A stretch of 62,683 bases of DNA, counting the filler, from a bacterium (GTDB taxonomy: Bacteria > JACRDZ01 > JAQUKH01), in the NCBI GenBank assembly GCA_028719205.1. It is 3 parts of 3 records of this genome, joined end to end, with 100 filler letters (N's around TTAATTAATTAA, not from the genome) between each part and the next. Parts side by side here need not be neighbours in the genome. Positions count along the whole stretch, not along the records: positions 1 to 27,950 come from JAQUKH010000033.1; 2 more parts are not named here. One strand, given 5' to 3'. The notes under the pieces are model-generated. The model was not told the DNA's origin and did no database searches. It saw only the letters and a list, made by a program, of their open reading frames with translations. This document shows positions 7,227 to 25,443 of this stretch, piece by piece. The stretch's first letter is position 1. Every line of letters begins with the position of its first letter. A program made the translations under genes and the position numbers.

Positions 7227-9150
7227 TTTTTAGTTTATTTAATAACTCCTCGGCGGCAGTGCCATCCTGAGGGTATGCTTTTATTTTATAATCAAACTTT
7301 ATTTTTGACGAGTCCATGATCCTTTCAGCAAGCTTAATGCCGTTTTCTCCGCTGCTTTCCGCTATGATGATAATAGCTCTATTATGATAAACCAACACAA
7401 GATCATCTTTCCTTCTCATACTGTTTTTACACTGCTTTTCCAGATAGTCAATGTGGCTTTTATTTTCCTCTGTTAATTCCTTTCCATAGCCCGGATCAAT
7501 TAATATTAAAGAAAGATCTGTCCCTTCTTTTTTAACTCTGTCTATTTCCTGCTGGATCAGATCAATGTATGCTGAATTTTCATTAAATATCGGAATTGTA
7601 AACAAAAAAGCCGAGCCCTTTCCCAATTCTGACTCGATCCAGATCTTCCCTCCGTGTTTTTCAACAAGTTCCCTTGATATTACCAATCCTAATCCGGTAC
7701 CACCTGATCTATGTTTGGATCCCGCTTCCAATTGACTAAATTTTTTAAAAAGCTTTTTCTGGTCTTCATCTGAAATACCCAAGCCTGTGTCTTTGACAGA
7801 AATTACCACAAAATTTCCTGAAATATTACAGTTCACAATAATATTCCCACCGGGGGGAGTGAACTTCATCGAATTTCCGATCAAATTCGTAAGTATTTGT
7901 ATTATCTTATCGGGATCAGCAAAAATAGAAGGCAGACCATCGGGAATATTATTTATTATTCCTATCTTGCTATTTCTAGCTAAAAGTTCAAAACTTGCCA
8001 TTACCTGATTAACGATTTGCGAGATCATAACCGGAGCGCGTTTTAACTTGATCTTTCCTGACTCGATCTTTGACAGGTTCAAAAGGTCATTTACGATCCG
8101 TGCTAATCTGTCCGAGTCGTTAATCGCCGTGTTAAGGCACTTGATCTGTTTTTCGTTTACCGGCCCCACAGCGCCATCCATAATAATTGAAATTATCTCC
8201 CTTATAGAGGTCAAAGGCGTCCTTAGTTCATGGCTTACAGCATTCACGAAGTCGGATTTCATCTGTTCAATTTCTTTTTCTCTTGTAATATCAGTAAGAA
8301 GTGTCGCCCTTCCCATAAATATATTATCGGGGCCGAATATCGGGGTAGATCCTATATGAACTATTCTCTTTTTGGGTGCTCCGATATTAATGATCTTCTC
8401 ATTGTATTCATTTTTATTCGCTTCCAGCGACAAATCTTTCAGCATAACATCTATCGCAAATTTATTTTCCAGATTTCTGTGTAAATCAAGCATATTTAAA
8501 GCGGCATCATTGATAGTAATAATATTTTCCCAGTTATCCGTTATTATCAGGCCTTCTTTCATCCCGCCGACGATCGCTTCTATTCTTCTTTTTTCCTCTT
8601 CAACTTTCTTCTTTTCCCTTTCCAATAAATGTGATTGTTCTATAACCATATTCCGGTCCAGTAAACTGCGTAATCCCAAAGCAAGCTGGTTACAAAATAT
8701 TTCCAGAATATTCAACTTGAACCTTACAAAAGCATCTTTATGAGAACTGCCGACAGTTATATATCCAAGCGTTTTGTCTTTTACTTCTAACGGAAAAATA
8801 TAAAAAGAATTGAGAGACTTCAAAGATCCTTTTCTATTATCTATCGGGTCTTCCTCGATATATGTATTCAATTCCTGCCAGACTATTGAATTTGAATTTG
8901 CCCATTTCCGGATCTCCTGCTTAACTTTTTCTTTAAAAAGATCAAAAACAGGACTATTTAAATCTATAACTGAACTATAATTTATTAAAGCATGATCACT
9001 ATAAACCAATGCTAACGAGCAAAATTCACAATTCACTAAAAAGGGTATATTAATAATTGCCCATTTGATCAAAGGTTCCGGGCCATCCAGTGATAAGGCA
9101 AGATTATTTATTTCATTTAATACATCAGTTACTACTCTTTCCTTCTGCAT
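7210..9150 (-). CDS. GAF-PAS histidine kinase with C-terminal degenerate GGDEF domain (start taken at ATG 9150; ORF open to 9171)
   Basis: [32 protein letters not shown]; tail LSLILID...[15 protein letters not shown]...YPQDG. Confidence 0.9.
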
Positions 9151-9757
9151 TTGTACCAACCCCCATTGCATTTAATATTTTCCCCAAAGACAACATATCC
9201 GGTATAAAAAAGAAATTAGCTAATATCTTTTCATCAACAACAGTAAACTCTGTTTCAACAAGGATAACATGATCCGCTTCCTTGCTTGTTTCGATCAGTA
9301 TATTGTCAATTATCGCGCCGGCCATATCTTCAGCTAAAGCAGGCGATGATACCAAAAACTTCATTTTCAAAAGTTTGGCCATGGCGCTCAGATAAGCACC
9401 TGAAATTATTGTCATTGTTTCTTTTAAGGCGGATTGTTCCATATCACTTAAAACATTGGTTTGTTTAACCCGGCCCAGCAATAAACCCACTAATTTGCAG
9501 GCATCTTTCTTAAAAAAAGGAAACAGGATCACACCTGTGGCGTCACCCAGCAGTTGTAAATATATTGCTATTACAAGCGCCTCAGCATCGCCAAAAAGCT
9601 CAACTGCCTTTTCAATAGTGGAAAAATTTACCTTAGGAACCTCAATATTGATCTTTTTATTCAGCATCTGCGATAAAGCGGTAGCGGCATTACCCGCGCC
9701 TATGCTGACTATTTCTCTTAAAGCATCTTTTTGATCCTGATTCAACTCATTTTCCAT
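9125..9757 (-). CDS. cheC: CheC-family protein with both E-x2-N sites altered
   Basis: [40 protein letters not shown]. Confidence 0.88.
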
Positions 9758-9782
9758 GGCAGATCTCCTTTAGCCTTAATAA

Positions 9783-10394
9783 TTAAACACCCAAAGCACT
9801 GATAATTTTTTTAATTGCATCTCCAATCGGAATAAAAACTAAAAAGCCCTCTACTTTTGTAGCGGCTTCAGTAAATTCGGTTTTTATACAAAGAACATCC
9901 TCTATATCTTCTTTACTGATCCCGTTTTTATTAAGAAACTTTTCTGAAAGCCCGATCTTCCCAATATTGTAATCAGGGGTAGATACTATCAGGGAAAGCC
10001 TTGTCATTTCACCTACCGCGTTTAAATATGACGCGGCCACGATATTTCCGATCTCTCTCAGCGCCGATTGCTGAAATTCATCTGTAAGTTTTGAAATTAT
10101 CTTAGGTTTTCCCATTACAATATCGCATAACATTGCCGCGCCATCTTCCTGTATCGCGAAAATTATTATTCCTTTCACACTGCCCAATACCAATAAGCTT
10201 ATCTGTATAATTTCTTTTTGCGTGCCATTAAGAAACGTGTCAAGCCGCGACAGTTCAATAATATGAACAGAAGGAACAGCGATCATGATCTTTTTGCCCA
10301 GGAGTTGTGAGAGCGCGATCGCGGAATGTCCTGAACCGATATTCCCTGCCTCCTGCAAAGCACTTCTTTGCATTTCAGTTATTTTTATAGCCAT
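9783..10394 (-). CDS. cheC: CheC CheY-P phosphatase
   Basis: SALQEAGNIGSGH and SALREIGNIVAASYL, both E-x2-N intact. Confidence 0.92.
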   Translation of the reverse strand: MAIKITEMQRSALQEAGNIGSGHSAIALSQLLGKKIMIAVPSVHIIELSRLDTFLNGTQKEIIQISLLVLGSVKGIIIFAIQEDGAAMLCDIVMGKPKIISKLTDEFQQSALREIGNIVAASYLNAVGEMTRLSLIVSTPDYNIGKIGLSEKFLNKNGISKEDIEDVLCIKTEFTEAATKVEGFLVFIPIGDAIKKIISALGV

Positions 10395-10414
10395 ATTTAA
10401 CTCCTTTTTAATAA

Positions 10415-12400
10415 TTATATTAATGTCGCAACATCTAAAATCAGCGCGACTTTTCCATCGCCAAGTATGGTCGCTCCGGCAAATCCATGAATTCCTTTAA
10501 ATTCTTTAGACAACTGTTTTATTACTATATCCTGCTGGCTTAACAGCTTATCAACCACAATACCAAACTGTTTATTTTCAAATTCAACAATTACGATCTT
10601 AATTAGCGAATTGTGTGCCGCGGTCCGTGAATCGCTGTTCATATCACAGACTAAAGAAAAGAGATTTTCGAGCCTTATAATCGGGAGGACTTTGTTACGA
10701 TGCAGGATTGTTTCACTTGCTTCTATTTTTTTTATATCATTTTCTTTCGCGACAAGGATTTCAATTACGCTCGATATGGGAATAGCAAAAGTTTTTTGTA
10801 AAATTACAACCATTAACGCCTGAACAACCGCTGTGGTTATTGGAAGGCGCATTGTGATCTTCGCCCCAAGGCCGACATCAGATTCAATCACTACACTGCC
10901 GCCAAGGCTTTCTGTTTTCTGTTTAACAACATCAAGGCCTACACCTCGGCCTGAAATATCTGTTACCTCCTGTTTAGTGCTCAAACCCGGATGAGCGGTC
11001 AAGAGGAGGATATCTTCCTTATTCATGGATTTTAAATCTTCTTCTTTTATTATGCCCCGCTCTATAGCTATTTTTTTTATAACATCAGTATCAATTCCTT
11101 TACCATCGTCTTTTACTTCGATCAGCACATAACTCTTTTCCCTGCGCGCTGAAAGAACTATTGTACCTTCTTCCTGCTTACCTTTATTTTTGCGTACTTG
11201 CGGGCTTTCAATGCCGTGGTCTACTGAATTTTTCAGCAAATGGATAAGCGAATCGCCAATTTCATCCAATACACTCCGGTCTAATTCTATGTCCCCGCCT
11301 GTCACATCAAACTTTATCAATTTAGATTCTCTCTTAGCTAAATCCCTTACAAGCCTTGGAAAACGTTCAAATATCTGGTTCACCGGAACAAGCCGCGCCT
11401 GCATAACTTCCATCTGCAGGTCATCAATATGGCGATTGAAATCTTCTATAACGGATTTCAGGTCATTGTCCTGGAATCTTAAACCAATTTCCAGAAGCCG
11501 TAACTTGCTGATAGCTAATTCTTCCACAAGATTCATTAATTTATCCAGGCGTTTTATATCAACACGCACACTCTGGATCTTGCGCATTTGCCCGCTCTGC
11601 CCCGCAGCTTCTTTAATTTCTTTAGTATCATCAATGGAACTTTGCTTTACGTCCTTATTCCATAACGGATTTATCTGTATCTCATTAACTATTACTTTTT
11701 CGACATCCAATATTTCAAAAACATTTTTTTCCACAATGTCTTTTTTTTCTTTAGTAACAAATATACAGCTGAAACTCTCTCCAAACTTTTCTTCTTCAAG
11801 ATCCTGGCTGCTTGGTATTGACTTTATCACCTCGCCGATATTGTGAAGATTTCTGAATATCATAAACGCCCTTACGCTCTTAAGGACGCAATTCTTTTCC
11901 AAATAAATTTTAATATAATAAGATTGAAAACCTTCTGACTTTACCCTGGCTAAAGTCTTTTTTTCAAACTCATTAAGGCTGATCTCATCAGTTACTTTTT
12001 CTTCATTAAATTTTATCCGCTTTGTCATAGCCTTGTCCAGTTTATTGACAAGCGGTTGTATATCTTTCTTGATTTCTTTTTCTTCCTGAACATCTCTTAC
12101 CATGCTTTCAAGGCTGTCAAATGATTCAAATAACAAATTTACCAATTCCTCTGAAATCTGCAGGGTATTGTCCCGCGCCTGTGATAAAACATCCTCCATC
12201 TTGTGGGATAGATCCGCTATAAGGCTATACCCCATGCTTGCGGACATACTTTTAAGCGTATGCGCCGACCTGAAGATCGTGTTTAACGCGTCTGTATTTT
12301 TAGGGTCTTTTTCTATAATAAGCAGATTTTTATTCATTTCCTGCAAAAACTCGCCCGATTCCTGAATATATAATTTTTTATATTCGTTCTGTTTTTCCAT
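10415..12400 (-). CDS. cheA: Chemotaxis histidine kinase CheA (P1-P2-P3-P4-P5)
   Basis: IFRSAHTLKS, SVRVDIKRLDKLMNLV, HLLKNSVDHGIE, SGRGVGLDVV, GATILGDGKVALILD. Confidence 0.97.
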   Translation of the reverse strand: MEKQNEYKKLYIQESGEFLQEMNKNLLIIEKDPKNTDALNTIFRSAHTLKSMSASMGYSLIADLSHKMEDVLSQARDNTLQISEELVNLLFESFDSLESMVRDVQEEKEIKKDIQPLVNKLDKAMTKRIKFNEEKVTDEISLNEFEKKTLARVKSEGFQSYYIKIYLEKNCVLKSVRAFMIFRNLHNIGEVIKSIPSSQDLEEEKFGESFSCIFVTKEKKDIVEKNVFEILDVEKVIVNEIQINPLWNKDVKQSSIDDTKEIKEAAGQSGQMRKIQSVRVDIKRLDKLMNLVEELAISKLRLLEIGLRFQDNDLKSVIEDFNRHIDDLQMEVMQARLVPVNQIFERFPRLVRDLAKRESKLIKFDVTGGDIELDRSVLDEIGDSLIHLLKNSVDHGIESPQVRKNKGKQEEGTIVLSARREKSYVLIEVKDDGKGIDTDVIKKIAIERGIIKEEDLKSMNKEDILLLTAHPGLSTKQEVTDISGRGVGLDVVKQKTESLGGSVVIESDVGLGAKITMRLPITTAVVQALMVVILQKTFAIPISSVIEILVAKENDIKKIEASETILHRNKVLPIIRLENLFSLVCDMNSDSRTAAHNSLIKIVIVEFENKQFGIVVDKLLSQQDIVIKQLSKEFKGIHGFAGATILGDGKVALILDVATLI

Positions 12401-12414
12401 TTTATCCCCGTAAA

Positions 12415-13464
12415 TTAAACTTTCACTAATTTTTCCATCTCTCTAGCCATTAGATGTAAAGGAACAATTCTGTCCGCCAGGCCCGCTTCTACTACCGATC
12501 GCGGCATGCCATAAACGATACAGCTTGATTTATCCTCAGCTAAAACCATGCCTCCCGCGGTTTTAATTGCCTGCGCGCCGAATGTTCCGTCAGTGCCCAT
12601 TCCGGTAAGAATAATACCGACAGTTTTTTGTTTAAAATTTTTTGCCACGGATCCCATCATTATATTCGCGCATGGCTTCACGCCAAGCTGAGCGGGTTTA
12701 TCGCTTAAAATTACATGCGGATTGTTTTCTCCTCCCTCAACTTCCATATGTATTCCCCCGCGGGCTATTATAACCTGCGCGGGTTTTATGGGCATCTGGT
12801 CTTGCGCCTCCAGGATACTGATTTTTGACTGCCAATTCAGCCTTTCGGAAAAACTTTTTGTAAAACCCACCGGCATATGCTGTACTACCAGAACTGCGGC
12901 AGGCAAATCCGCACTTAGAAGAGGTAAAATTGTTGACAATGCCTGAGCACCTCCCGTTGAAGAAGCAATCGCAAAAACCTTAATAATAGAAGACGGTTTT
13001 TTAATAATTTCCCTGCTCTCTTTTGCCTTCTCAGCCCAAATTAACTTTAACTTTTCAATAGGAACCTTTGACGCCAGCTTCACTTTTTCAATTATTTCTT
13101 TGCTTATTTTTGTAATATCAGGCGAGATCACGCCTCCCGGTTTGCAAATAAAATCTATTGCCCCAAACTCAAGAGCGCGTATGGTCTCCTCAGAACCCTC
13201 CTTTGTAAACGCGCTGATCATAACGCACGGAACAGGGCACTCGCTCATTATATAACCTAAAGTGTCTAAGCCGTTTAAAACCGGCATTTCTACATCTAAA
13301 GTAACAACATCCGGCTTCTGGTCATGAATAGCATCTATAGCTTCTTTACCGTCTTTCGCTATAGCGACTACTTCTATTTCAGGATCGCTTTGAAGTATTT
13401 CGCTTATCTTCTTGCGCATCAGAGCACTGTCATCAGCAATTACTACCCTTATTTTTTTATTCAT
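12415..13464 (-). CDS. cheB: Chemotaxis methylesterase CheB
   Basis: REC (DDS, TLDVEMP) plus SSTGG, QHMP, LTGMGTDG, YGMP. Confidence 0.97.
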   Translation of the reverse strand: MNKKIRVVIADDSALMRKKISEILQSDPEIEVVAIAKDGKEAIDAIHDQKPDVVTLDVEMPVLNGLDTLGYIMSECPVPCVMISAFTKEGSEETIRALEFGAIDFICKPGGVISPDITKISKEIIEKVKLASKVPIEKLKLIWAEKAKESREIIKKPSSIIKVFAIASSTGGAQALSTILPLLSADLPAAVLVVQHMPVGFTKSFSERLNWQSKISILEAQDQMPIKPAQVIIARGGIHMEVEGGENNPHVILSDKPAQLGVKPCANIMMGSVAKNFKQKTVGIILTGMGTDGTFGAQAIKTAGGMVLAEDKSSCIVYGMPRSVVEAGLADRIVPLHLMAREMEKLVKV

Positions 13465-13497
13465 TATTACTCCCGTAATTCATGCCGCTTGTTAAAA

Positions 13498-13986
13498 TCA
13501 TATTTCCTTAACTCCATGCACTATTGATCTAATTTTTAGTTTACCGGTTGAGGTATCCAGAATGATAGTCCTTCCGATTGAACCGCCGGTCTCCTCAGCA
13601 ATAAGCGGAATTTCAAGTTCCTTAAGTTTCTTCTTTGCCGCGTCTACATTTCGCTTGCCGATGGACAATGAATTATCTCTTATTATATTCGGGAACATAT
13701 TAGCTCCGCCTGCAATTTTTGCTTTAATAAACCTTTTATCGGCGCCAAGTTTTATAATTTGTGTTAAAAGCATATCAATAGATGAATTCACAAATTTCGC
13801 AGGGTTATTGCGTAAACTTTCCTTCATATTGTTTCCATCCGGCAGCATAGCATGCGCAAGGCCTCCCAATTTGGCATAATTTTCATATAAAACTATTCCC
13901 ACACAGGAACCTAACGCCCGGGTTTCAATATTATCAGGGCTCTTAACTACAGCCAATTGAGCCATATTTACGCGTATTGTCGCCAT
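13498..13986 (-). CDS. cheD: Chemoreceptor glutamine deamidase CheD
   Basis: ALGSCVG, AHAMLP, KIAGGANMF, IGKRN, ETGGSIGR. Confidence 0.95.
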   Translation of the reverse strand: MATIRVNMAQLAVVKSPDNIETRALGSCVGIVLYENYAKLGGLAHAMLPDGNNMKESLRNNPAKFVNSSIDMLLTQIIKLGADKRFIKAKIAGGANMFPNIIRDNSLSIGKRNVDAAKKKLKELEIPLIAEETGGSIGRTIILDTSTGKLKIRSIVHGVKEI

Positions 13987-14002
13987 AAAAACTCCTATGA
14001 GA

Positions 14003-14374
14003 TCATTTCAACGCTCTTTCAACCGCGCTTAACACACGCGAAGATTCAAATGGCTTTACGATAAAATCCTTGGCACCCGCCTGGATCGCTTCAACAACCA
14101 GCTGCTGCTGGCCCATAGCGCTTACCATAACTATTTTAGCCTTTTCATCATGTTTAATAATTTCTTTTACAGATTCAATTCCCCCCATTTCAGGCATAAT
14201 AATATCCATAGTTACAATATCCGGTTTCACTTTTTTATATTGTTCCATACCTTCTTTGCCATTCGCAGCTTCTCCCGCGACTTCATAACCGCCCTCTGTT
14301 AAAATATCAGTCAACATCCTCCGCATAAACACCGCGTCATCCACCACCAGCACTTTTCCTTTTGTCTTTGCCAT
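14003..14374 (-). CDS. cheY: Chemotaxis response regulator CheY (F1/Firmicutes-archaeal type)
   Basis: VDDAVFMR, TMDIIMP, VSAMGQQ, FIVKPF; position in che operon. Confidence 0.93.
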   Translation of the reverse strand: MAKTKGKVLVVDDAVFMRRMLTDILTEGGYEVAGEAANGKEGMEQYKKVKPDIVTMDIIMPEMGGIESVKEIIKHDEKAKIVMVSAMGQQQLVVEAIQAGAKDFIVKPFESSRVLSAVERALK

Positions 14375-14423
14375 TTTTTCACCTCCTTAATTTCGTGATT
14401 TTTAAAAATTCAATGTTTATAAT

Positions 14424-14918
14424 TTACTCTTTGACTGCTTCTTTTACTTTTTTAATTTCTTCATGGCTCAGTATCCTGTCAACGTCAAGCAGAATAACTA
14501 ACCTGTTCTCCAGTTTTCCGACTCCTTTTATAAATTCCGAATGTATCTGTGTTTCGATCATCTCAGGCGCGGGATCAATACTTTCCTCCGGGATCCTTAA
14601 TACCTCCGGTACTTCATCTACAATCAGGCCTACCGTATTATCCTTAACTTCCGCTACAATTATCCTGGCCTTATCAGTAAGCTTAATCTCTTTCAGCCCA
14701 AACCTTTTGGCTAAATTCATTACAGCTATGATCTGACCGCGAAGGTTAATAACACCCATAATAAATTCCGGCGCGCTTGGTATAGAGGTTATATCCTGCA
14801 TTCTTATAATCTCTTTTATCTGTGAAATATCCACTCCAAACTCCTCACCTGCCATAAAAAATATTACAAGCTGTTTTTCTTTCACACTTTTTTTTTGCTC
14901 TTTTTTTTGGTCAGCCAT
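14424..14918 (-). CDS. cheW: Coupling protein CheW
   Basis: GVINLRGQII, VGLIVDEV, LVILLDVD. Confidence 0.96.
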   Translation of the reverse strand: MADQKKEQKKSVKEKQLVIFFMAGEEFGVDISQIKEIIRMQDITSIPSAPEFIMGVINLRGQIIAVMNLAKRFGLKEIKLTDKARIIVAEVKDNTVGLIVDEVPEVLRIPEESIDPAPEMIETQIHSEFIKGVGKLENRLVILLDVDRILSHEEIKKVKEAVKE

Positions 14919-14990
14919 TCTCCGCTCCTTTCATTACTCAACCATCGGATTTTCTTTCCAACAGTCATTTCCATTATAGCTTATCCTTAC

Positions 14991-15818
14991 TTATTTTTTA
15001 ACATAAATTCTATTTTTCGAGTCATATTCGATAAACCTATCTGTCATATGGACGGGAATCGATTCAACTCTGCCTAAGATCAAAAAACCGCCTTTATTTA
15101 ATGAACTTAAGAGCCGCTCAAGGATATGCTCCTGAAGTTTGCGGGAAAAATATATAAAAACATTACGGCATAAGATCATATCCATATTTTTCAAAGGAAC
15201 ATCCGCGATAATATCATTATAATAAAATTTCATATAATCCGGCCATCCTTCGCGGATCCAGTACCGTTTATTTCCTATATCATAAAAATATTTATTAATG
15301 AGCGATTTTTTTTGCGCTGATAAATTTTTAAATTGACAATCCTCGTATACCCCTTCTTTTGCCTTGGCAAGCACCCTGTTGTCGATGTCAGTCCCAAAAA
15401 TTGTTAATCCATAATTTGCTATTTCCTTATTCAAAATTTCCGCGAAAAGCATTAAAACCGAATACGCCTCTTCACCTGAAGAACAGGCACAACTCCATAC
15501 GCGGACCGGATTTGACCCCATTTTTTTTTTTGAGATCAGCTCAGGAATTACATTTTTTTCTATCGCGTCAAACACAGGCGTGTCCCGAAAAAATTCGGTC
15601 ACATTTATGGTCATTACATCCATTAAATTATCTATTTCTTCCGGATGCAATTTCAAATAATAATAATATTGTTCAAATCCCCCCGTTTTGGTGCTTCTTA
15701 CACGCGCCATTACCCGCCGGGAAAGAAGATTCTCCCTGTATTGTGAAAAATCAAGATTGCGTTCTTCTTTAATTTTCTCAAGAATATTTTGTAAATAAGG
15801 ACCCTTTTCTGAAATCAT
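14991..15818 (-). CDS. cheR: CheR methyltransferase (first copy; start taken at ATG 15818)
   Basis: [36 protein letters not shown]. Confidence 0.93.
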   Translation of the reverse strand: MISEKGPYLQNILEKIKEERNLDFSQYRENLLSRRVMARVRSTKTGGFEQYYYYLKLHPEEIDNLMDVMTINVTEFFRDTPVFDAIEKNVIPELISKKKMGSNPVRVWSCACSSGEEAYSVLMLFAEILNKEIANYGLTIFGTDIDNRVLAKAKEGVYEDCQFKNLSAQKKSLINKYFYDIGNKRYWIREGWPDYMKFYYNDIIADVPLKNMDMILCRNVFIYFSRKLQEHILERLLSSLNKGGFLILGRVESIPVHMTDRFIEYDSKNRIYVKK

Positions 15819-15822
15819 TTTT

Positions 15823-16293
15823 TTATATCTTTTTTTCCTTGTTATCCGTCGGCCATGCATTCAACCCAACCATCTCGTACATCTTAGAAAAACAAAAATC
15901 CGCGAAGATCCTTCGCGCGTCTTTATTCACGGCATCAAATAATATCCCAAATTCATACAAACCGCTTTCCGTTCTTTCCAGCCTTACTATTCTTCCTTCC
16001 AGAGTCAAGACCGCTGATTCAAACTCATCCAAAAGTATCTCAAGCTGCACCCTGGAGTTTATCGGGATATTTTCAGTCGTTAATAAAAGGCACCCGTTTA
16101 CAGAAATATTTTTTGCCGCCACAGATAATTCATTAACATTTTTACTGCCGCCGGTTTCATTAATAAGCTTGTACCTTACTTTTAGAGGCAAATCCAGACG
16201 AGCGCATTTTCTTTGTTCGTTAAAATCATCACTATTAACAGCATGTTTTAAAACGCTCTTGATATCTGCTGTTTTAAATTTAATTTTATCCAT
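15823..16293 (-). CDS. Stand-alone PilZ-domain protein
   Basis: RKCAR (RxxxR) and NISVNG (N-x-S-x-x-G), GRIVR, YEFGILF. Confidence 0.9.
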   Translation of the reverse strand: MDKIKFKTADIKSVLKHAVNSDDFNEQRKCARLDLPLKVRYKLINETGGSKNVNELSVAAKNISVNGCLLLTTENIPINSRVQLEILLDEFESAVLTLEGRIVRLERTESGLYEFGILFDAVNKDARRIFADFCFSKMYEMVGLNAWPTDNKEKKI

Positions 16294-16343: not shown

Positions 16344-16676
16344 TTAATTCTTTTTTCTCTTTGGCGAACTAGTGTGATGTTGCCTCGTTGCCTTTAAAGT
16401 TTGCGTTTTTTTCTTATGTCTTGGATATTTTTTAACTATTTTTAGGGCCTTTGCGATCTCGCTCACAATATCCGTTTTAAATTGAATTTCCACTGCTTTT
16501 AGTTTCTTATAAGCCCTGCCTACATCTGAAACACAATACATAGGCGGAAGATTATTCAACGCCAGGGATATTGTATCCAATCTGCATCTTTCACAATTAC
16601 AATATTTTTTACTATAAGCCAATATTTGATCCAAAGTTTCCATTACCAACTCTTCCATATAATTCCTGTATTCCAT
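16344..16676 (-). CDS. ComFB-family protein (cyclic dinucleotide receptor family)
   Basis: NYMEELV, CNCERCRLD, ALNNLPPMY, IVKKYPRH. Confidence 0.9.
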   Translation of the reverse strand: MEYRNYMEELVMETLDQILAYSKKYCNCERCRLDTISLALNNLPPMYCVSDVGRAYKKLKAVEIQFKTDIVSEIAKALKIVKKYPRHKKKTQTLKATRQHHTSSPKRKKN

Positions 16677-16693: not shown

Positions 16694-16727
16694 AAAAGCA
16701 AAAAGCCTGATTTTAAAAAAATCAGGC
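16694..16727 (-). terminator. Intrinsic terminator-like hairpin just upstream of the comFB RBS
   Basis: Minus strand GCCTGATTTT-TTT-AAAATCAGGC followed by TTTTTGCTTTT. Confidence 0.6.
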
Positions 16728-16744
16728 CCCGCTAATACCTTACT

Positions 16745-16945: not shown

Positions 16946-18640
16946 TTAAATACTTTTTAACTTAAACTTTCCGACCATATCTTTTAATTCAACAGCTGTC
17001 CGCGCTACTTCCTGAGCCGAAGCTGACATCTCCTGCATTGACGCGGTCTGTTCTTCGACAGAGGCCGAAACCTGCTCGATCGTAGAGGAGGATTCTTTAG
17101 CAATTGAAGCAACTTCATTAACCGCTTTGGCCACACGTTCCGTATCCTTAACCTGCTCCTGGCCGCTCTGTTCAATTTCGCGGGTAAGTACATTTGCCTC
17201 ATTAGCCACTTTATTAAGATCTATTAACATCTCCATGATCTTAGAAACCTGAATTTTACCTTCCTGCATCTCTTTTGAGTTCAATTCTATCGCTTCAACA
17301 GCGTGGTTAGTTTCTGCCTGAATAGACTTGATCAACCCTCCGATTTCTCTTACCGCTTCAGCCGAACCTTCCGCTAATTTTCTGACTTCCTCCGCCACCA
17401 CCGCGAAGCCCCTGCCCATCTCACCCGCGCGGGCCGCTTCTATAGCCGCGTTTAACGCCAGTAAATTCGTCTGGTCGGCGATTTTGGTGATCGTTTCCGT
17501 GATTTCTCCGATCTGCTGAGATTTGTCTCCCAAACCGCGTATCACTTCCGCGGTATTTGTAATAGCCTTGTTAAGAATACCTATTTTATCAACTGTTTCA
17601 CTGGTCAAAGTACGGCCGTTTTCGGCGCGGGTTGAAGTTTGGTTTACCGTAACACCGGTAGACTGGGCCTTGGTAACCATCTGTTTTATCGTTATCGCTG
17701 CTTTTTCCGAAAGCCCGAAGGCTTCTTCAATACGTTCAAACTGGGTAGCCGCCCCTTTAGACACATGCTGTATCGCGCTGGAAATCTCCTCAATTGAAGC
17801 GTTCATCTCCTCGGCGGAAGAAGAAAGCTCTTCGCTTGAGCTTGCCACTTTTTCCGCGTTAACACGAATATTCATCACCATATCATGCATTGATTCTATA
17901 ATTTTATTAAAGGCCTCGGACAACTGGCCTATTTCGTCATTAGAGGATACCCCTATCCTCTGTGTAAGATCACCGGCCCGCGATGCCAAAGTGACCGCCG
18001 CAGCCTTAAGTTTGTCTATCGGGTTAGTTATAGTAAATCTGATAAAAGCAAACACCACCAAAATAGTTACCAGCAGGCACACCCCCGCTATCAAAATACT
18101 TAAGAAAGTTATATTTTTTATCAAAGCTTCTATCCTGTTACTTGAATATCCCAGTACGATCTCTCCGATACCTTTTTCCTCTTTGATTATAGGTATCCGT
18201 ATCTCATGCAATTTTAAATCCTTTACATCAACATCAGAAACAATATATTTCCCTGAAAGCAATTCTTTTGTATTTTTACCGACAGGCAAACGGAAATTTG
18301 GATCCTTCAACCTGTTGGCGGTTGTTACCTGCTGATCTTTCCTTACAATGACCGCGTAATAAATATCATCCTGTTTGTCAACAGTTATTTCACAAGGTGT
18401 ATTTAATATTTTAATTATCTCAGGTGAAAATTCATCTGAAATAGAAATAACGGAATTTAAAGGGCCCGCTACCACAGCGCTTAAGTTTTCCCCCACGGAA
18501 ACAATACGCTCGGAAAATTCTTTGTTCATATTATTTCTGAAGATCATCAAATAAAATATCATTAGAACAGCAATAGAAATAACCAGTGTACCGCTAACCA
18601 ATAATCCGATCTTCTTTCCAAGCGAAAAAAATTTTTTCAT
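16946..18640 (-). CDS. Methyl-accepting chemotaxis protein (TM-periplasmic domain-TM-HAMP-signalling)
   Basis: [65 protein letters not shown] methylation sites. Confidence 0.96.
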
Positions 18641-18658
18641 AAAAATAACCTTTACCTG

Positions 18659-19114
18659 CTATTCGTTTATTAATAAAATAACCTTAATCCCCTCAACACC
18701 TTTTACCTCACTTTCCAGAACATACCCGATACCGGTTTTCTCCTTCTGGACAAAAGATATTATATCCTTTGAATTATCAATGGCTTTCGGAATATCTGAC
18801 CCGGACTCAAGCGAAAATCTTACCCAGTAGCTTTGATATTCACTCACGCGCATCCCGCATATTTTTTTTAGAAACCTCTCAAGTATCGACTTATCCTTAT
18901 GGTTGGCTGCTTTAATAGCGGAACCCTTCCAGTACTTCACCTTTCCCACATAGATATCTTTAATATCTTTTATCTCGGGATTTTCCTTCTCCGAAAATAC
19001 AGGGGACTCGCTATTAACAATTACAGCGATATTTTCCACGGCAGCTTTTTCTGCAAAGGCTGATACGTGAACACATAAAATTATGAACGCGCATAAAACT
19101 ATTATTTTTTTCAT
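18659..19114 (-). CDS. Small exported periplasmic-binding-protein-like protein (PstS/PBP2-like half domain)
   Basis: Signal peptide (SAFA), IAVIVN..P, IY.G...W, FVQKEKTGIGYV. Confidence 0.7.
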   Translation of the reverse strand: MKKIIVLCAFIILCVHVSAFAEKAAVENIAVIVNSESPVFSEKENPEIKDIKDIYVGKVKYWKGSAIKAANHKDKSILERFLKKICGMRVSEYQSYWVRFSLESGSDIPKAIDNSKDIISFVQKEKTGIGYVLESEVKGVEGIKVILLINE

Positions 19115-19130
19115 TTTATTTCCTTGTCTT

Positions 19131-19174
19131 ACCTCTCCTTCCCCTCCTTGGCAAGAAGGGAATTATGGGGTGGT
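19131..19174. repeat. Degenerate REP-like imperfect inverted repeat between porin and PBP genes
   Basis: ACCTCTCC..CCCCTCCTT-GGC-AAGAAGGGA..GGGGTGGT. Confidence 0.35.
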
Positions 19175-20352
19175 TAAAATGATGCTGCCAAACCTACTGA
19201 CATTCTGTAATAACCTAATTCTCTTTTCGTCTTGACATAATCAGTTTCAATTTTTAACAATGTCTGCCACGGAAGTATTTGATACGCGAATCCATAAGTA
19301 TAATATCTTGTTTTGAATTCCGGGGCACTTTTATCCGGGGCCCAGATCTGATACTGCAAAAACGGGATCCAATTTTCACCCACGTTATATTTTGTCATTA
19401 CATAAAAAGCTCTCATATTCACACCATTTTTATCCGAATTCGCGAGCTCAGAGGTAATACCCAGGTCATAAGCGTTATACTCCGCGGAAAACGCGTTGGT
19501 ATACTGTTTGATAAAATTCTCGCTTGATACCAGGGAAGGCAGTATATAATCATAATTTATACTCTGCAATTTATATTTATCATGGTTATGTGAATACATC
19601 ATTTTAAGATTAGTCTGCCCAAGAGGGAGGTCATATCCAATTCTGCAGCCTAAAGCTTTAGATTCATTGTCATCCTTATACGCGCCGCCTACTTCAACCA
19701 GTTGAGCATTACGCTCATCATGACAATTACTGCATTGGGTAGCCTCATTCCTCACTATATGCGCGGGGCTGACCGCCTTACCGTTTGCCACATAAAGATC
19801 ATAGGTGAATTGGCCCTTCTCGCCCAGGATCCAGGCTCCCTGAGAATACCTTTGAAATAAGTTAGCATCACTATCAGTGTTGCTTCCCCGGGTATATAAA
19901 GAATACCTGCCCGGCTGGTCTAAAGTCGGATAGGTAGGTACCGCGAACTGCATGGTATTCCAAAGGCCGAACGGTGTGGCAAATTTTCCGGCCCGGATCT
20001 TAAACCATTCTTTGGCGGTAAATGTAATATATGCGTCATTAATGTTTATTTGTCCGGACGAACGCGAGTCTAAAGTTCTTAAGGCCGTAATAGCATAATA
20101 AGGGGCATGTTCAAACACGATCTGGCTATATACGTCTATTTTATCACTTAGCGTGAATTTAGGTATAAGCGCTAACACGAATGGATCAAATGTTGAATTA
20201 GGATTAGGCCCGTGCTTAGTTTCACTTATATAATTCCAGCCGAAATAACCGTGCCAGGTCAATTTTTGAAATTCCTGCGCGTGGATCTCAAGCCCTGAAA
20301 AACCGCAAATAAAAAAGGCCAGAAAAACTAATCTTATCTTTGAAATTTTCAT
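19174..20352 (-). CDS. Outer-membrane beta-barrel porin with an internal CxxCH heme-binding motif
   Basis: Signal peptide, amphipathic aromatic strands, IRAGKFATPFG, C-terminal Phe (GLAASF); CSNCH at residues 207-211. Confidence 0.8.
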   Translation of the reverse strand: MKISKIRLVFLAFFICGFSGLEIHAQEFQKLTWHGYFGWNYISETKHGPNPNSTFDPFVLALIPKFTLSDKIDVYSQIVFEHAPYYAITALRTLDSRSSGQININDAYITFTAKEWFKIRAGKFATPFGLWNTMQFAVPTYPTLDQPGRYSLYTRGSNTDSDANLFQRYSQGAWILGEKGQFTYDLYVANGKAVSPAHIVRNEATQCSNCHDERNAQLVEVGGAYKDDNESKALGCRIGYDLPLGQTNLKMMYSHNHDKYKLQSINYDYILPSLVSSENFIKQYTNAFSAEYNAYDLGITSELANSDKNGVNMRAFYVMTKYNVGENWIPFLQYQIWAPDKSAPEFKTRYYTYGFAYQILPWQTLLKIETDYVKTKRELGYYRMSVGLAASF

Positions 20353-20396
20353 TTTTTCTCCTCTTATAACCTATGCCCCATATCCTTTTATATTAA

Positions 20397-21077
20397 TTAC
20401 CATCTTTTACTATGACAAATAGTATTGTTACTGCATCCCAACTCTGTGCCGACTGCTACATTTTTATCCGGCTTTTTAGTAGAGTATGTCCCATTTTTAT
20501 GACAACCAAAACAAACAGTTAAATTAGTTAAAGACATTGGATTTGTTTTGGAATGGTGTACCGCCCGTGGTGTTGTTGTATCGGTAGTGCTTGTATCATC
20601 GGCGGTTTTGTTATTCCAGGGCGCCCGTGGATGAGGTGCGCTAACACCGTGGCAGGTAAAACAAGGCACATTTACGATACCGCCCGCAAAATCCTGGCCG
20701 TGGCATTTCTGGCAGCGAGGGAATCCATAAGTTGATGACCCGTTAATAGATGTAGAATTATATTTGGCATTCGCCCCGTGCGCAGTGAAATCCGACCAGC
20801 CGGCAGGATGCTGTTCATGACAGGCTTGCCCCTTATAACTCGCGGAAAAACAATTTACATTCGAGTTCCCGCCATCACAATTGACCCCGTGGCAATTAGT
20901 ACACCCGGTTTTTTCTTTATACGCGAGATATCCGGTCTTATGAACTTCGATCCAATTTTCAGGATGTAATATCGTACTAACCGTTGGTTGTTTATTCTTG
21001 CTACCGCACCCTGAAAAACATATTAAAAACACTATAAAAATAAAAAATCTAAAAGAAACAATTTTTATTTGTGACAC
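20397..21077 (-). CDS. Multiheme c-type cytochrome lipoprotein (4 CxxCH plus CX9CH and CX5CH)
   Basis: GTG start, lipobox FSGC; CTNCH, CQKCH, CFTCH, CFGCH; CFSASYKGQACH, CSNNTICH. Confidence 0.88.
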   Translation of the reverse strand: MSQIKIVSFRFFIFIVFLICFSGCGSKNKQPTVSTILHPENWIEVHKTGYLAYKEKTGCTNCHGVNCDGGNSNVNCFSASYKGQACHEQHPAGWSDFTAHGANAKYNSTSINGSSTYGFPRCQKCHGQDFAGGIVNVPCFTCHGVSAPHPRAPWNNKTADDTSTTDTTTPRAVHHSKTNPMSLTNLTVCFGCHKNGTYSTKKPDKNVAVGTELGCSNNTICHSKRW

Positions 21078-21152
21078 GGTTTGCCCCTTTCATTATTTTT
21101 CCGGCTATGGTATTAGCTTAACTAGATGGATCTATATGCCTATTAAATTTTA

Positions 21153-21181
21153 ATTGTAGAACACAAAATTTATATAGTCAA
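21153..21181 (-). promoter_or_regulatory. Sigma70-type promoter for the cytochrome-porin-PBP-MCP unit
   Basis: TTGACT-N17-TACAAT. Confidence 0.55.
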
Positions 21182-21194
21182 TGCAAATTTTATC

Positions 21195-21223
21195 TTGACT
21201 AAAAAAGTATTTTATTCTATTAT
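21195..21223 (+). promoter_or_regulatory. Sigma70-type promoter for the ptsN-like gene
   Basis: TTGACT-N17-TATTAT. Confidence 0.5.
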
Positions 21224-21233
21224 CTACAGCAAA

Positions 21234-21261
21234 GTATCGGTTTTGTAATATAGAGACTTTA
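21234..21261 (-). promoter_or_regulatory. Weak sigma28-like promoter pointing at the cytochrome operon
   Basis: TAAA-N16-ACCGATAC. Confidence 0.35.
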
Positions 21262-21269
21262 ATATTATT

Positions 21270-21818
21270 ATGAGAAATAGATCATTAAAAATATATCCTC
21301 TTATATCGGAAAAAAGTATAAATCCTAACCTTTATTCAACTACTAAAGAAGAAGCCATTAAAGAAATAATCGAGCTGGTTAATTCAGATCAGGTGCTGAC
21401 AGATAAGAGTAAATTTTTAAATTTAATTATAGAAAGAGAAAATCTATGCAGTACCGGGCTTGAAAATGGCGTGGCTTTTCTTCATCCGAGAGTAGCGGTT
21501 GAAGGGCTTGTAAATAAAACAACCATCGGCATAGGTATTTCCCGTAAAGGAATCGATTTTAATTCAGCGGATGAAGAATTAACCTATGTATTTTTCATAT
21601 TATGTTTTAAGGAATATGAGAATCATTTGCAGTACTTATCCTATTTGAGCCGTCTCTGTAAAGATATTGAATTTATAAATAATCTGAAAAGTGCTGATAA
21701 TTTCAAAGAGATTATAAAAATTATTGATGAAAAAGAAAAAAGCGATAAATCTGCAGGGATACCACCGCACAAGACACTTTATGATGGTATAATGAGTTTT
21801 TATCAAAACAAAAAATAA
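21270..21818 (+). CDS. PTS EIIA (PtsN/fructose-mannitol type) domain protein
   Basis: ERENLCSTGLENGVAFLHPR, GIDFNSAD, HLQYLSYLSRL. Confidence 0.88.
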   Translation: MRNRSLKIYPLISEKSINPNLYSTTKEEAIKEIIELVNSDQVLTDKSKFLNLIIERENLCSTGLENGVAFLHPRVAVEGLVNKTTIGIGISRKGIDFNSADEELTYVFFILCFKEYENHLQYLSYLSRLCKDIEFINNLKSADNFKEIIKIIDEKEKSDKSAGIPPHKTLYDGIMSFYQNKK

Positions 21819-21819
21819 T

Positions 21820-22461
21820 ATGCTTACTAAAATTGGCGTACAGCGGGGTACAAAAGACAATATTAAGCTTGCGGGAATATTTACTGTCGTTTCCGGTTAT
21901 ACAAATACACTGGCTTTTTTAACTGTTGGTTTTCTTGTATCACATGTTACCGGAACAGCTACTCATTTCGGCCTTAATGCCGCTAAACTGGATCTTAGCT
22001 TTATTCAATATGGTTTGATGCTGTTGATGTTTATACTCGGTGCCATCATGAGCAGTTTCATAATGATCCATCCGCATTTAAAAAACAGTATCGCTCTTTT
22101 GATCGAAGGCGGCATTCTATTGATAACCGGTTTAATAACTTTACCTTCATTAAAACTTTCCGCAATAATTACCATAAATCTTGTTCCATTATCTTTATGC
22201 CTTGCCATGGGAATACAAAGCGCCTCAACAACTTATTTATCTTCAGCTATAGTCCGGACAACTCATCTTACCGGAGCCGCGACTGATATCGGCATGGCTA
22301 TAGTAAAAAAAGACATAAGGGCGTTAATTATTCTATCGGTTATTATCTTAGGTTTTATTTTTGGATCATTTTTAGGGTATTTCGCGAATTTATATTCAGG
22401 GATACACGGTTTTATACTCCCCGGGATCGTAATTACTGTAATAGGAATAGCGTATTTATAA
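21820..22461 (+). CDS. YoaK/DUF1275 family membrane protein
   Basis: SGYTN, VSHVTG, AMGIQ, VRTTHLTGAATDIG; multiple TM. Confidence 0.88.
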   Translation: MLTKIGVQRGTKDNIKLAGIFTVVSGYTNTLAFLTVGFLVSHVTGTATHFGLNAAKLDLSFIQYGLMLLMFILGAIMSSFIMIHPHLKNSIALLIEGGILLITGLITLPSLKLSAIITINLVPLSLCLAMGIQSASTTYLSSAIVRTTHLTGAATDIGMAIVKKDIRALIILSVIILGFIFGSFLGYFANLYSGIHGFILPGIVITVIGIAYL

Positions 22462-22473
22462 ATAGGTCCGGCA

Positions 22474-25443
22474 TTACGCAAAATCAGATGAGGGTTTGTC
22501 GATATAATAACCCTGCGCGAAATCGATCCCGAAATCTTTTAGAAGCTCCAGCGTCGCTTTTCTTTCTACAAATTCAGCAATGATCATGATCCCCATACCT
22601 TTAGCCATATCCGCAATAGCTTTTACGATCAACTGGTCTTTCAGGCTTTGTTCCAGGCGTTTAACAAATGATCCGTCTATTTTAATATAATCTACATTCA
22701 TTTCTTTCAAAAACACAAAAGAAGTAAACCCCGCTCCAAAATCATCCAGTGAAATACCGCAGCCTATTGCTTTTATTAAATTAATAAATTTTACGGCCGT
22801 GTCCATATTTTTAATGGCGGCAGTTTCTGTTATTTCAAACACTAAAAATTTAGGGTCAGCTCCTGTTTCCATTATTTTAGACTTCAAAAAAGAAATAAAC
22901 TCCATGTTCTCCAGATCTTTTTCAGAAAGATTTACGCAGAAAGTAATATTCTTCCCCTCACTTTTTAATTTTGCCATAATTTTTAATGTTTTCTCTGTAA
23001 TAACCTTATCTATAAAATATATTAATCCGGTATTCTCCGCGGTTTCCATGAACATCGCGGGCGTAGCAATATTCCCGTTTTCATCGACTATCCTGGCCAG
23101 TACCTCATAATGATGGATCTTATTACTATTTATATCCAGGATCGGCTGGTACCATGGCTCCACCCGGTCTTCTTTTAATGCCTTCTGAATAAACTCCTTC
23201 CACTTGAATTTTGAATAGATCTTTTCCAGATCATGATCTTTTGATTTGAAAAAGCAATATTGATTTCGTCCGGATTTCTTTGCCCTATACATTGAGGTAT
23301 CTGATTTTCTAAGAAGGTCCCTGACGGTATTCCCGCTTTCAGGATAAAGCGCGCATCCCATACTTATTGTTGAATGTATAGCAGCGTCAGAAAAATAGAA
23401 ATTTTCTATAGCCCTGCAAATGTATTCTGCCGCTTTTTCCCCTTCTTTTTCATCAATGTCAGGCATAAAAACCGCAAACTCATCGCCTCCCAGCCTCCCG
23501 ATAATACCTTTTTCCCCCGGTTTTTTTATAATGGAATTATATATTTCTACTATAGTTTTTTGTAATAATTCGGCTATACCGCGCAGATAATCATTTCCAA
23601 CCGAATGTCCGTATACATTATTAATAACCCGCAGGCCGTCAATATTAAACAAGGATAATATACCAATCTTCTCAAAATTTTTATCCTCAGCGATCCATTT
23701 ATCTAATTGATCCATAAACCAGCTCCTGCTGAAAAGGCCTGTCAGTTCATCACAGGAAACAAGGTTTTTGATCTTTTTCTCAGAGACCATCCTTTCAGTA
23801 ATATCTTCCTGAATAACAAGAAAATGCACGATTTTACCGGTTTCATCAGAGATAGGATTAACCAGGGAATAACACCAATATTCTTTCCCGTCTTTCTTTC
23901 TATTTTTTGATACCCCCCGCCATCCCCTTCCTTCTTTAATGGCTGACATCAACTCGTTATCTTCATTCTCTTTACCTCCGGAGGAAACAAACAAATATAA
24001 ACTTTTTCCAAGCAGCTCTGCCTTTAAATATCCTGTTAAAATTTCAAAAACTGAATTTACATTTTCAATTTTGCCTTCCCTATTGGTAATAAATACCATA
24101 TTGGTACTGTTATCAATAACAGTTGAAAGTTTTTTTATTTCAAACTGGGCGTCTTTCTCGCTGGTAATATCGCGAAATGAAGCAAGATAAGCAGGTTTAT
24201 CCTCCCATATTGTTTCTACTACCCTTAATTCCGCGAATCCTGCCCTGCCGTCTTTATAGATAATTTCTACTTCCAGCGTTTTATCAATCTTTTCAGAAAA
24301 AGCTGTAATTTTACTTAATACATCGTTTATGTTATCTCCAAAAAGGGATTTAGCGGTAGAATTTATGAACTGTACTATCCCGTTTTTATCCAGAATAATA
24401 ATGCCATCCGAGTCTTTTTCAACAATATTTAAGAAATTTGCCCTGCTTTGCTCTAAATTTTCTTTTGATTCATCCAGGTCCTTAAGCATATTCAAAATTG
24501 CTTCCTGATACTCTGTTAAATTCTTAGTCCGGTCATTAACTTTTTCTTCCATAGTCTGAAGCAACTCATCATGGTCCTGGTTTAACCTGTCTAACTCTTT
24601 AATAAGCCATTTTGTTTCCCGAATATCATAAACTCTGCACACAAAACCTTTTATTAAAAGATTCCCTGAATTTTTAGATTTTATGTTCTCATTTGAATAT
24701 ATTGCCGCGCCTGAAATGCTAACAGGTATTTTAACGCCGGTTTTTGTAATACAATATGTTTCGATCCATTTTGTTCTTTCCGGCCTGATAAGCCTGTCTG
24801 TCAAACTGCCGGTTAAGACCCTGCCTTCATTAATTAATCCCACATAATATTTCAGTTTATCTTTTAATCTTTTTATATTCCTGAAATCACTCGCGGTTAA
24901 CTGTCCTGCCTGTGCCCTTTCACTTATCCTTTTTGCCATATGAAGGTAATATTCCTCTCTCCCTTCCTTTATCTGTACCGCTGCAATAACATTAACTAAA
25001 TACTTTTTGCCCTCATTGTCAAAATGTGTGTGTACTACAGCATAAGGTTCACCCGCGGTTAACATTCCTGAGATAGGGCATTTATCCTCGGGGGGCTGGC
25101 ATTTGTAATCTTTACCATGTGTTATTTTATAGCAGTACTGGCCGATTATTTCTTCTTTTTTAAGGCAAGACATATTTAAAAAAGCCTCATTGGCCTTTTT
25201 TATTCTAAAATCTTTAGATATCAGGCAAATACCTTCATCAATTTCATTAAATATCTCTTCTTCCGCGAAAATTGATGAAATATGCCGCCCGATAAGGCTG
25301 TTTTTTTTATATCCTAACAAGTCCAGTAATCCCTGATTGACTTTTTCGATCATCCCATCAGGATTAAACATAACCATTGAATCAGTCATACAGGAAGCAA
25401 CTTCGTCTGTATATTTTTTTTTATTAATTCCCGTTTTTTTCAT
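22474..25443 (-). CDS. PAS-GGDEF-EAL diguanylate cyclase/phosphodiesterase
   Basis: DELTGL, RLGGDEF, YQPI..YEVLAR, FEITE, DDFGAG, KIDGSF, AEFVE, QGYY. Confidence 0.94.
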   Translation of the reverse strand: MKKTGINKKKYTDEVASCMTDSMVMFNPDGMIEKVNQGLLDLLGYKKNSLIGRHISSIFAEEEIFNEIDEGICLISKDFRIKKANEAFLNMSCLKKEEIIGQYCYKITHGKDYKCQPPEDKCPISGMLTAGEPYAVVHTHFDNEGKKYLVNVIAAVQIKEGREEYYLHMAKRISERAQAGQLTASDFRNIKRLKDKLKYYVGLINEGRVLTGSLTDRLIRPERTKWIETYCITKTGVKIPVSISGAAIYSNENIKSKNSGNLLIKGFVCRVYDIRETKWLIKELDRLNQDHDELLQTMEEKVNDRTKNLTEYQEAILNMLKDLDESKENLEQSRANFLNIVEKDSDGIIILDKNGIVQFINSTAKSLFGDNINDVLSKITAFSEKIDKTLEVEIIYKDGRAGFAELRVVETIWEDKPAYLASFRDITSEKDAQFEIKKLSTVIDNSTNMVFITNREGKIENVNSVFEILTGYLKAELLGKSLYLFVSSGGKENEDNELMSAIKEGRGWRGVSKNRKKDGKEYWCYSLVNPISDETGKIVHFLVIQEDITERMVSEKKIKNLVSCDELTGLFSRSWFMDQLDKWIAEDKNFEKIGILSLFNIDGLRVINNVYGHSVGNDYLRGIAELLQKTIVEIYNSIIKKPGEKGIIGRLGGDEFAVFMPDIDEKEGEKAAEYICRAIENFYFSDAAIHSTISMGCALYPESGNTVRDLLRKSDTSMYRAKKSGRNQYCFFKSKDHDLEKIYSKFKWKEFIQKALKEDRVEPWYQPILDINSNKIHHYEVLARIVDENGNIATPAMFMETAENTGLIYFIDKVITEKTLKIMAKLKSEGKNITFCVNLSEKDLENMEFISFLKSKIMETGADPKFLVFEITETAAIKNMDTAVKFINLIKAIGCGISLDDFGAGFTSFVFLKEMNVDYIKIDGSFVKRLEQSLKDQLIVKAIADMAKGMGIMIIAEFVERKATLELLKDFGIDFAQGYYIDKPSSDFA

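Follow-up and report, generated by a model that had tools for sequence, protein, structure and literature searches.

A CxxCH-bearing porin and a lipoprotein cytochrome joined to a conserved porin, half-binding-protein and chemoreceptor trio: a possible outer-surface redox sensor

The window analysed here, a stretch of 62,683 nucleotides (nt) from the bacterial genome assembly GCA_028719205.1, joins parts of three contigs (C33, C34 and C54), and only positions 1-27950 come from the contig that carries the four-gene unit considered below. From 5' to 3' this unit (Table 1) encodes a lipoprotein multiheme cytochrome c, a predicted outer-membrane porin with a CxxCH motif, a small secreted protein corresponding to half of a periplasmic binding protein (half-PBP) and a methyl-accepting chemotaxis protein (MCP). 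An original prediction had described four co-oriented genes with short gaps, encoding a lipobox multiheme cytochrome, a CxxCH-containing barrel, a small binding protein and a transmembrane MCP. The layout is as claimed, with all open reading frames (ORFs) on the minus strand and gaps of 44 nt (cytochrome-porin), 59 nt (porin-half-PBP) and 18 nt (half-PBP-MCP), and all four identities and their motifs are real. The binding protein is indeed without an ABC partner, as no transporter genes are present in the unit. A purine-rich stretch precedes the start codon of each of the four genes. The layout is not an assembly artefact, since contigs of two public runs reproduce it: those of one run, possibly the source sample, are identical over positions 17882-20150 and 20132-22500, and the junction of cytochrome and porin is also covered by a contig of another run from that study.

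As judged from gene neighbourhoods, the conserved core of the unit is a heme-free trio of porin, half-PBP and MCP/HAMP sensor and not the pair of cytochrome and porin. Scans with a porin alignment yielded 12 loci, among which L008/L013 and L010/L014 are near-copies. A half-PBP gene directly follows the porin gene in 11 of these closest loci, the contig of the twelfth ending inside the porin, and an MCP-like gene comes next in eight of the 12. The three adjacent, co-oriented genes of the window are homologous to those of the other trios. In L007 the trio is surrounded by a che cluster whose gene set equals that of the window; the porin gene lies directly after cheW in both L007 and L009, and genome G003 combines the trio with a diguanylate cyclase. 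A second survey took in 301 genomes from the phylum to which L003 belongs (labelled Myxococcota), 86 of which have a porin-family match; the 30 best loci were excised with flanks of 1.5 kb, and a half-PBP gene adjoins the porin in 18 of them. By these comparisons the trio is widespread and recurs without heme in many bacteria. The trans-envelope relay of the original prediction is therefore strongly backed by co-conservation for its path from porin through half-PBP to MCP, whereas the proposed co-conservation of the cytochrome and a CxxCH-porin with the MCP for the most part did not hold. Searches of open-licence full text returned no description of a porin/half-PBP/sensor trio or of a signalling porin with a heme loop.

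Heme appears to have joined the trio at least twice, separately, because another porin and half-PBP trio (L041/L064; L064:3677-7380, G174:C47) has an MCP with a periplasmic CxxCH. A gene with six CxxCH motifs close to the trio of G003 (L017) encodes a c554-type protein and stands apart from the trio, with another gene in between, so it was not taken as a linked cytochrome; short CxxCH frames in L036, L050, L052 and L061 were judged to be shadow frames.

The AlphaFold model of the window porin (mean pLDDT 78) is a barrel of 16 strands whose best fold matches are general porins. Its family scores fall below the cut-offs (17.1 bits against 20.9 for Porin_O_P, and 14.9 against 150 for porin_ExtI). 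The CxxCH motif (CSNCH, residues 207-211) is part of an insertion of 27 residues. According to the secondary-structure summary of the model, strand 7 ends at residue 190 and strand 8 starts at residue 232, with the insertion between them. Both termini and the short turns of porins are described as periplasmic (PMC8406198). Since it is located between strands 7 and 8 of a barrel oriented in this way, the insertion is predicted to form part of extracellular loop 4.

The insertion is rare. It is found in two of 10 close porin homologues (the window porin itself and one 79%-identical relative, P0002), in none of the 150 best family representatives (of 1,014 matches) and in none of the 30 second-survey loci. 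The corresponding loop, bounded by the conserved motifs NG and DD, measures 39 residues in P0001 and P0002 and 10-26 residues in all other aligned rows that cover it. The inserted segments of the window porin and P0002 are identical at 19 of 27 positions, with CSNCH in the former and CIDCH in the latter, and by composition a CxxCH would arise by chance within 27 residues with a probability of about 5e-5. In a tree of 26 porins, the CxxCH pair is nested among heme-free porins with support 100/100, as sister to P0003, and this placement shows that the insertion was gained once and recently. No donor was recognised: none of 438 CxxCH windows of the genome matches it well, and a resemblance to the pentaheme family described below is not clear. 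The surroundings of the porin motif resemble cytochrome heme segments. Ten residues before the motif lies His198, which could act as a distal heme ligand.

The cytochrome is a lipoprotein by its lipobox (FSG-C24). The cysteine and histidine residues of all six heme sites are invariant in 10 aligned homologues, and the protein likely binds six hemes. An extra cysteine, Cys67, is present only in the window protein and its two closest homologues (P0011-P0013). NCBIfam gave no match above cut-off for the cytochrome; matches to NCBIfam c550/c551 and Pfam TMP_3 were far below cut-off and were dropped. Sequence searches of the PDB matched nothing, whether the query was the cytochrome or the profile of its family, the pentaheme protein or the porin profile. 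In the second survey the family is represented by 17 distinct genes in 12 of 301 genomes, and a gene with five CxxCH motifs precedes 11 of the 17. This pentaheme neighbour is also found in four of five fetched loci of the window's own phylum, in three of which it stands behind a possible barrel gene (411-419 codons) without a family match. Such an arrangement recalls extBCD, in which ExtD follows the pentaheme ExtC (PMC6148476), and the order barrel, pentaheme, multiheme lipoprotein is not encountered at the window locus. Elsewhere in the genome, a lipoprotein with 23 CxxCH motifs (G000:C22:27396-29960) begins with a module paralogous to the window cytochrome (39% identical), followed by repeats.

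The half-PBP is modelled as one lobe of a PstS-type binding protein (TM-score to 4q8r 0.61 by query and 0.39 by target). Its 151 residues make up this one lobe, where PstS has two that form the ligand cleft. Duplicated half-PBP genes or tandem porin/half-PBP pairs occur in L005:2013-2924, L010:1130-4477 and L054, and two lobes could form a single cleft as a dimer. The mature protein contains an unpaired cysteine that is kept in the six closest homologues. The MCP comprises two transmembrane regions, HAMP and MCPsignal domains, a periplasmic region of about residues 37-170 and, by a rough count, about 44.7 heptads, that is, a receptor of the 44H class. It too carries an unpaired cysteine in the periplasmic domain, shared with L007. 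There is no CxxCH in either the MCP or the half-PBP. A paralogous MCP of the same genome (42% identical; L068, G000:C20:18565-21394) is encoded directly after a full-size Peripla_BP_6 binding protein, and this type of receptor seems to be fed by binding proteins.

The unit lies next to a che cluster, as originally described, but not directly upstream of it: a hairpin (16730-16702), comFB and a PilZ gene intervene. This cluster, in which CheC and CheD were assigned by Pfam and the other che genes were read from sequence, is likely the partner pathway of the unit. The association of a 44H MCP with CheA, CheW and CheY together with CheC and CheD corresponds to Dif-like systems, which have been proposed to control matrix production, a non-flagellar output (PMC2577667); the tiny periplasmic MCP loop of these systems is not found here. 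Because the 44H receptor and CheC/CheD resemble Dif-like systems, the output is probably a surface-attached state. Swimming is an unlikely output, since flagellin and FliM/FliN were not found in the genome (G000, 92.7% complete) or in two genus mates (G001, 98%; G002, 92%); they were found in G003.

ComFB-family genes travel with the che cluster, in the window and in L007 (3967-4230 and 11275-12363), where the family also occurs as a ComFB-CheR fusion. A second chemosensory cluster of the genome (L067, G000:C16:10095-18925) encodes a hybrid CheA-receiver, a long CheR and an MCP with a periplasmic CxxCH. The latter has a weak match to Mcp40H-20_sensor and, from its sequence, is a probable heme-c chemoreceptor. 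Contigs C12, C21 and C42 of the genome code for multiheme proteins of very large size, with 34 and 37 CxxCH, and also have seven multiheme genes grouped in a cluster.

The promoter candidate upstream of the unit belongs to a class of sites that are common in this AT-rich region (28 sigma70-like sites found against 15.9 expected). No hairpin was detected in the 44-nt gap between cytochrome and porin, and no stable hairpin directly after the MCP stop codon or in the leader. A hairpin between porin and half-PBP (19110-19176) is of purine/pyrimidine type (z -1.9), has no U tail and may tune mRNA levels. An Rfam search gave a single chance-level match.

Table 1. Features of the four-gene unit and its surroundings, in window coordinates
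Feature	Positions	Strand	Remarks
N runs at joins C33/C34/C54	27951-28050, 54336-54435		Genes across joins are not neighbours
Sigma70-like promoter candidate, TTGACT-17-TACAAT	21153..21181	-	Consensus match, 10 of 12
Lipoprotein multiheme cytochrome c, 226 aa, GTG start	20397..21077	-	4 CxxCH + CX9CH + CX5CH
Predicted 16-stranded outer-membrane porin, 392 aa	19174..20352	-	AlphaFold model, fold matches; weakly Porin_O_P/ExtI-like, below cut-offs
Lineage-specific 27-codon insertion in porin, residues 199-225	19678..19758	-	CSNCH at 19720-19734; loop after strand 7
Secreted single-lobe (half) PstS-type binding protein, 151 aa	18659..19114	-	
MCP, 564 aa	16946..18640	-	HAMP, about 44 heptads; no heme motif in periplasmic domain
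Terminator-like hairpin with U-rich tail	16702..16730	-	3' of four-gene unit; z -3.14, 0/200 shuffles as stable
comFB-family gene	16344-16676	-	
PilZ-domain gene	15823-16293	-	
che cluster: cheR, cheW, cheY, cheD, cheB, cheA, cheC, cheC	9125..15860	-	Dif/F1-like content
PAS histidine kinase	7210-9171	-	Downstream of che cluster; candidate output
Second CheR	6324-7226	-	Downstream of che cluster; candidate output
Single receiver domain	5932-6309	-	Downstream of che cluster; candidate output

What is new at this locus is the addition of a CxxCH insertion in the porin and of an upstream lipoprotein cytochrome to a trio that is otherwise heme-free. Two separate heme features meet in one unit. The genome contains 44 multiheme ORFs (at least three CxxCH), and by our own estimate, which assumes about 2,400 genes, a cytochrome would lie beside the unit by chance about once in 50. 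We propose, with a probability of about 0.5, that the redox state of a surface heme biases the relay from porin through half-PBP to MCP and so sets a surface-attached lifestyle.

The steps of such a mechanism can be outlined as follows. The starting point is the heme-free trio and its single, recent insertion, predicted to lie in outer loop 4. Heme would be attached covalently to the CxxCH in the periplasm, ahead of barrel insertion into the outer membrane; genes for cytochrome c assembly and for Omp85 are present in the genome, as are type IV pilus genes. The lipoprotein cytochrome, regarded as a copy of the terminal member of an ExtBCD-like cluster, would be located on the cell surface, where its electron exchange could be with minerals, with electrodes, with partner cells or with cytochrome wires belonging to the cell itself. 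The outer loop being within reach of a surface lipoprotein, the cytochrome would set the redox state of the loop heme. Oxidation of this heme would alter the shape or gating of the barrel, with no electrons crossing the membrane; indeed, electron passage is unlikely because no periplasmic redox carrier is encoded. The change in the barrel would in turn modify the state or availability of the half-PBP, which would contact the periplasmic domain of the MCP as in the heme-free relatives. Finally, the 44H MCP would signal through CheA, CheW and CheY together with CheC and CheD, and the output would be Dif-like and non-flagellar, for instance matrix, pili or c-di-GMP. In this full form, an antenna on the outer surface in which the cytochrome hands electrons to the porin loop heme and a conformational signal, not electrons, passes to the half-PBP and the chemoreceptor, the scheme is tentative and somewhat doubtful.

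Several observations weigh against a redox-sensing role. The neighbourhood search suggested in the original prediction, for co-conservation of the cytochrome, a CxxCH-porin and an MCP, gave the rare motif counts reported above, and none of the 17 cytochrome homologues stands beside a trio (no porin-family, half-PBP or MCP matches in the 1.5-kb flanks). Conversely, no cytochrome was found directly upstream of the heme-free trio in the nine of 12 loci with at least 500 nt of upstream sequence or in the 18 second-survey trios. The cytochrome and porin families co-occur in seven genomes, on different contigs in all seven. Across these genomes the heme parts and the trio were not conserved together, and the former go back to one evolutionary event represented by two sequences. 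In favour of a link between the heme parts, the cytochrome stands 44 nt before the porin with no hairpin between them, and P0002, the one further porin with a CxxCH, derives from a Logan contig of 2,251 nt, as does P0012, the nearest homologue of the cytochrome; their equal length suggests that the two may share a contig. The relay proteins show no adaptation to a new heme input: the half-PBP is 48-64% identical to its six closest heme-free homologues, and the MCP periplasmic domain matches that of the heme-free L007 receptor at 82 of 141 positions. Residues 196-227 of the porin have a pLDDT under 50, the loop being unstructured in the model, and no distal heme ligand is conserved after the motif in the two CxxCH porins. 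The surface exposure of the cytochrome is deduced from gene layout, and the unit is set apart from the che genes by the hairpin and the two genes mentioned above. Moreover, with the queries used, neither porin nor half-PBP was detected in the genus mates, whose two genomes are 98% and 92% complete, so that the feature does not extend across the genus. The best CheA matches of these genomes cover the C-terminal part only, and for these reasons the whole region has probably been gained or lost recently.

Among the alternatives, it is conceivable, if unlikely, that the loop heme has an open distal site where it detects a small ligand, such as NO, CO, O2 or sulfide, with the cytochrome as a neighbour or as nothing more than a re-reducer. 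Neither CxxCH porin has a conserved Met or His after the motif, as would suit such a site, and CxxCH insertion into Cache domains is described as having produced an NO sensor (bioRxiv 10.64898/2026.02.01.703092). However, His198 could provide the distal ligand. In addition, a gas sensor on the outer surface would add little, since gases cross the outer membrane freely and the MCP of the second che cluster already bears a CxxCH.

Another improbable possibility is that the trio senses an ordinary solute and that the insertion and the cytochrome are recent passengers, without effect on signalling, in a cytochrome-rich genome. The absence of co-conservation between the heme parts and the trio, the unchanged relay proteins, the 44 multiheme ORFs and the paralogous MCP that follows an ordinary full-size binding protein can all be accommodated in this way. 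Yet two rare heme events would then have had to meet by chance at one gene, and the motif has been kept between sequences 79% identical even though its inner residues have changed.

The original prediction had likened the cytochrome and porin to pairs of the MtrAB, Pcc or Cyc2 type. A reading close to it, according to which the two form a small Cyc2-like or Pcc-like conduit and the receptor reads electrons reaching the periplasm, is very unlikely. The cytochrome family does come from conduit-like clusters, some distant porin-family members adjoin cytochromes (L056, L057 and L059), and Cyc2 is itself described as a 16-stranded barrel with one CxxCH (PMC8406198); the motif of Cyc2 is, however, N-terminal and periplasmic, whereas that of the window porin is predicted on the outer face, and the sequence motif that precedes the CxxCH of Cyc2 is absent. 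Furthermore, the unit encodes no periplasmic cytochrome, and the half-PBP and MCP are devoid of heme motifs. A disulfide switch or metal site at the CxxC(H), possibly pairing with cytochrome Cys67, is highly improbable in view of the full CxxCH retained in cytochrome-like surroundings and of the fact that an exported CxxCH normally carries heme, despite the restriction of Cys67 to the window cytochrome and its two closest homologues and the lack of a precedent, in open-licence full text, for a heme-loaded loop passing through the barrel-assembly machine.

If the full antenna scheme is correct, the cell would sense extracellular redox potential by direct contact, and a signalling porin gated by heme would represent a novel type of receptor. 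A wider question is by what means bacteria respiring solids recognise a surface that they can use: in the accounts of the described cases (PMC5585712, PMC5789149), the systems respond to internal energy state or lack a known input from outside. The present locus offers a candidate for direct outside sensing that consists of four genes and can be expressed. It may also be viewed as a natural experiment on the trio, the site of the heme graft in outer loop 4 pointing to where the normal input of the trio may act. Its reach is narrow, the motif being present in two known sequences.

Indirect chemoreception via periplasmic binding proteins, as in the routes from LamB through maltose-binding protein to Tar and from PstS to CtpL, is a natural point of comparison for the trio. 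A porin, a binding-protein fold and an MCP are likewise combined in one route, and the small protein is PstS-like; the window unit differs in that this protein has a single lobe, an ABC transporter is lacking and the porin bears a heme motif.

With Cyc2, the porin has in common a 16-stranded barrel and a single CxxCH. The heme domain of Cyc2 is described as N-terminal and predicted to be periplasmic, with AXPXFAR[Q/K][T/Y] before the CxxCH (PMC8406198), while in the window the motif belongs to a mid-chain insertion in a predicted outer loop, the upstream motif is absent and the barrel is part of a sensing trio. As for the Geobacter ExtABCD and ExtEFG conduits, the cytochrome is of the same multiheme lipoprotein type and a pentaheme gene stands before its homologues, just as ExtC stands before ExtD (PMC6148476). 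The window unit lacks both a pentaheme partner and a periplasmic cytochrome, its porin is a different one, and the likeness to ExtD is one of gene layout and protein type. More generally, of the components of MtrCAB, Pcc and Ext conduits, the unit has a beta-barrel and a cytochrome with lipobox and heme motifs, whose side of the outer membrane is a deduction, and it does not encode a periplasmic multiheme cytochrome. PCC3 and PCC4 are reported as conduits with inner-membrane partners (PMC5566968), and PMC13591261 contains no information on Ext proteins or on sensing.

Chemosensory pathways tied to solid electron acceptors have been reported for Geobacter EsnABCD (PMC5585712) and for Shewanella congregation (PMC5789149). 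As presented in these reports, EsnA lacks a periplasmic domain, and the Shewanella MCPs act on flagella as energy-taxis receptors of the self-sensing kind; in neither system is a dedicated outer-membrane input encoded with the receptor. The heme-c chemoreceptors and Cache_heme sensors (GSU0582, GSU0935 and DcrA) provide a parallel for the recruitment of heme c by a short CxxCH insertion into an older scaffold, the route by which Cache domains are described as having become heme sensors (bioRxiv 10.64898/2026.02.01.703092). In these proteins the heme is part of the periplasmic domain of the receptor, whereas the window MCP carries no heme motif and it is the porin that has the insertion. Lastly, Dif-like clusters resemble the window cluster in combining a 44H MCP with CheA, CheW, CheY, CheC, CheD and CheR. 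The periplasmic loops of their MCPs are given as 3-10 residues (PMC2577667), against a domain of about 140 residues in the window receptor, and the window cluster additionally includes CheB and ComFB.

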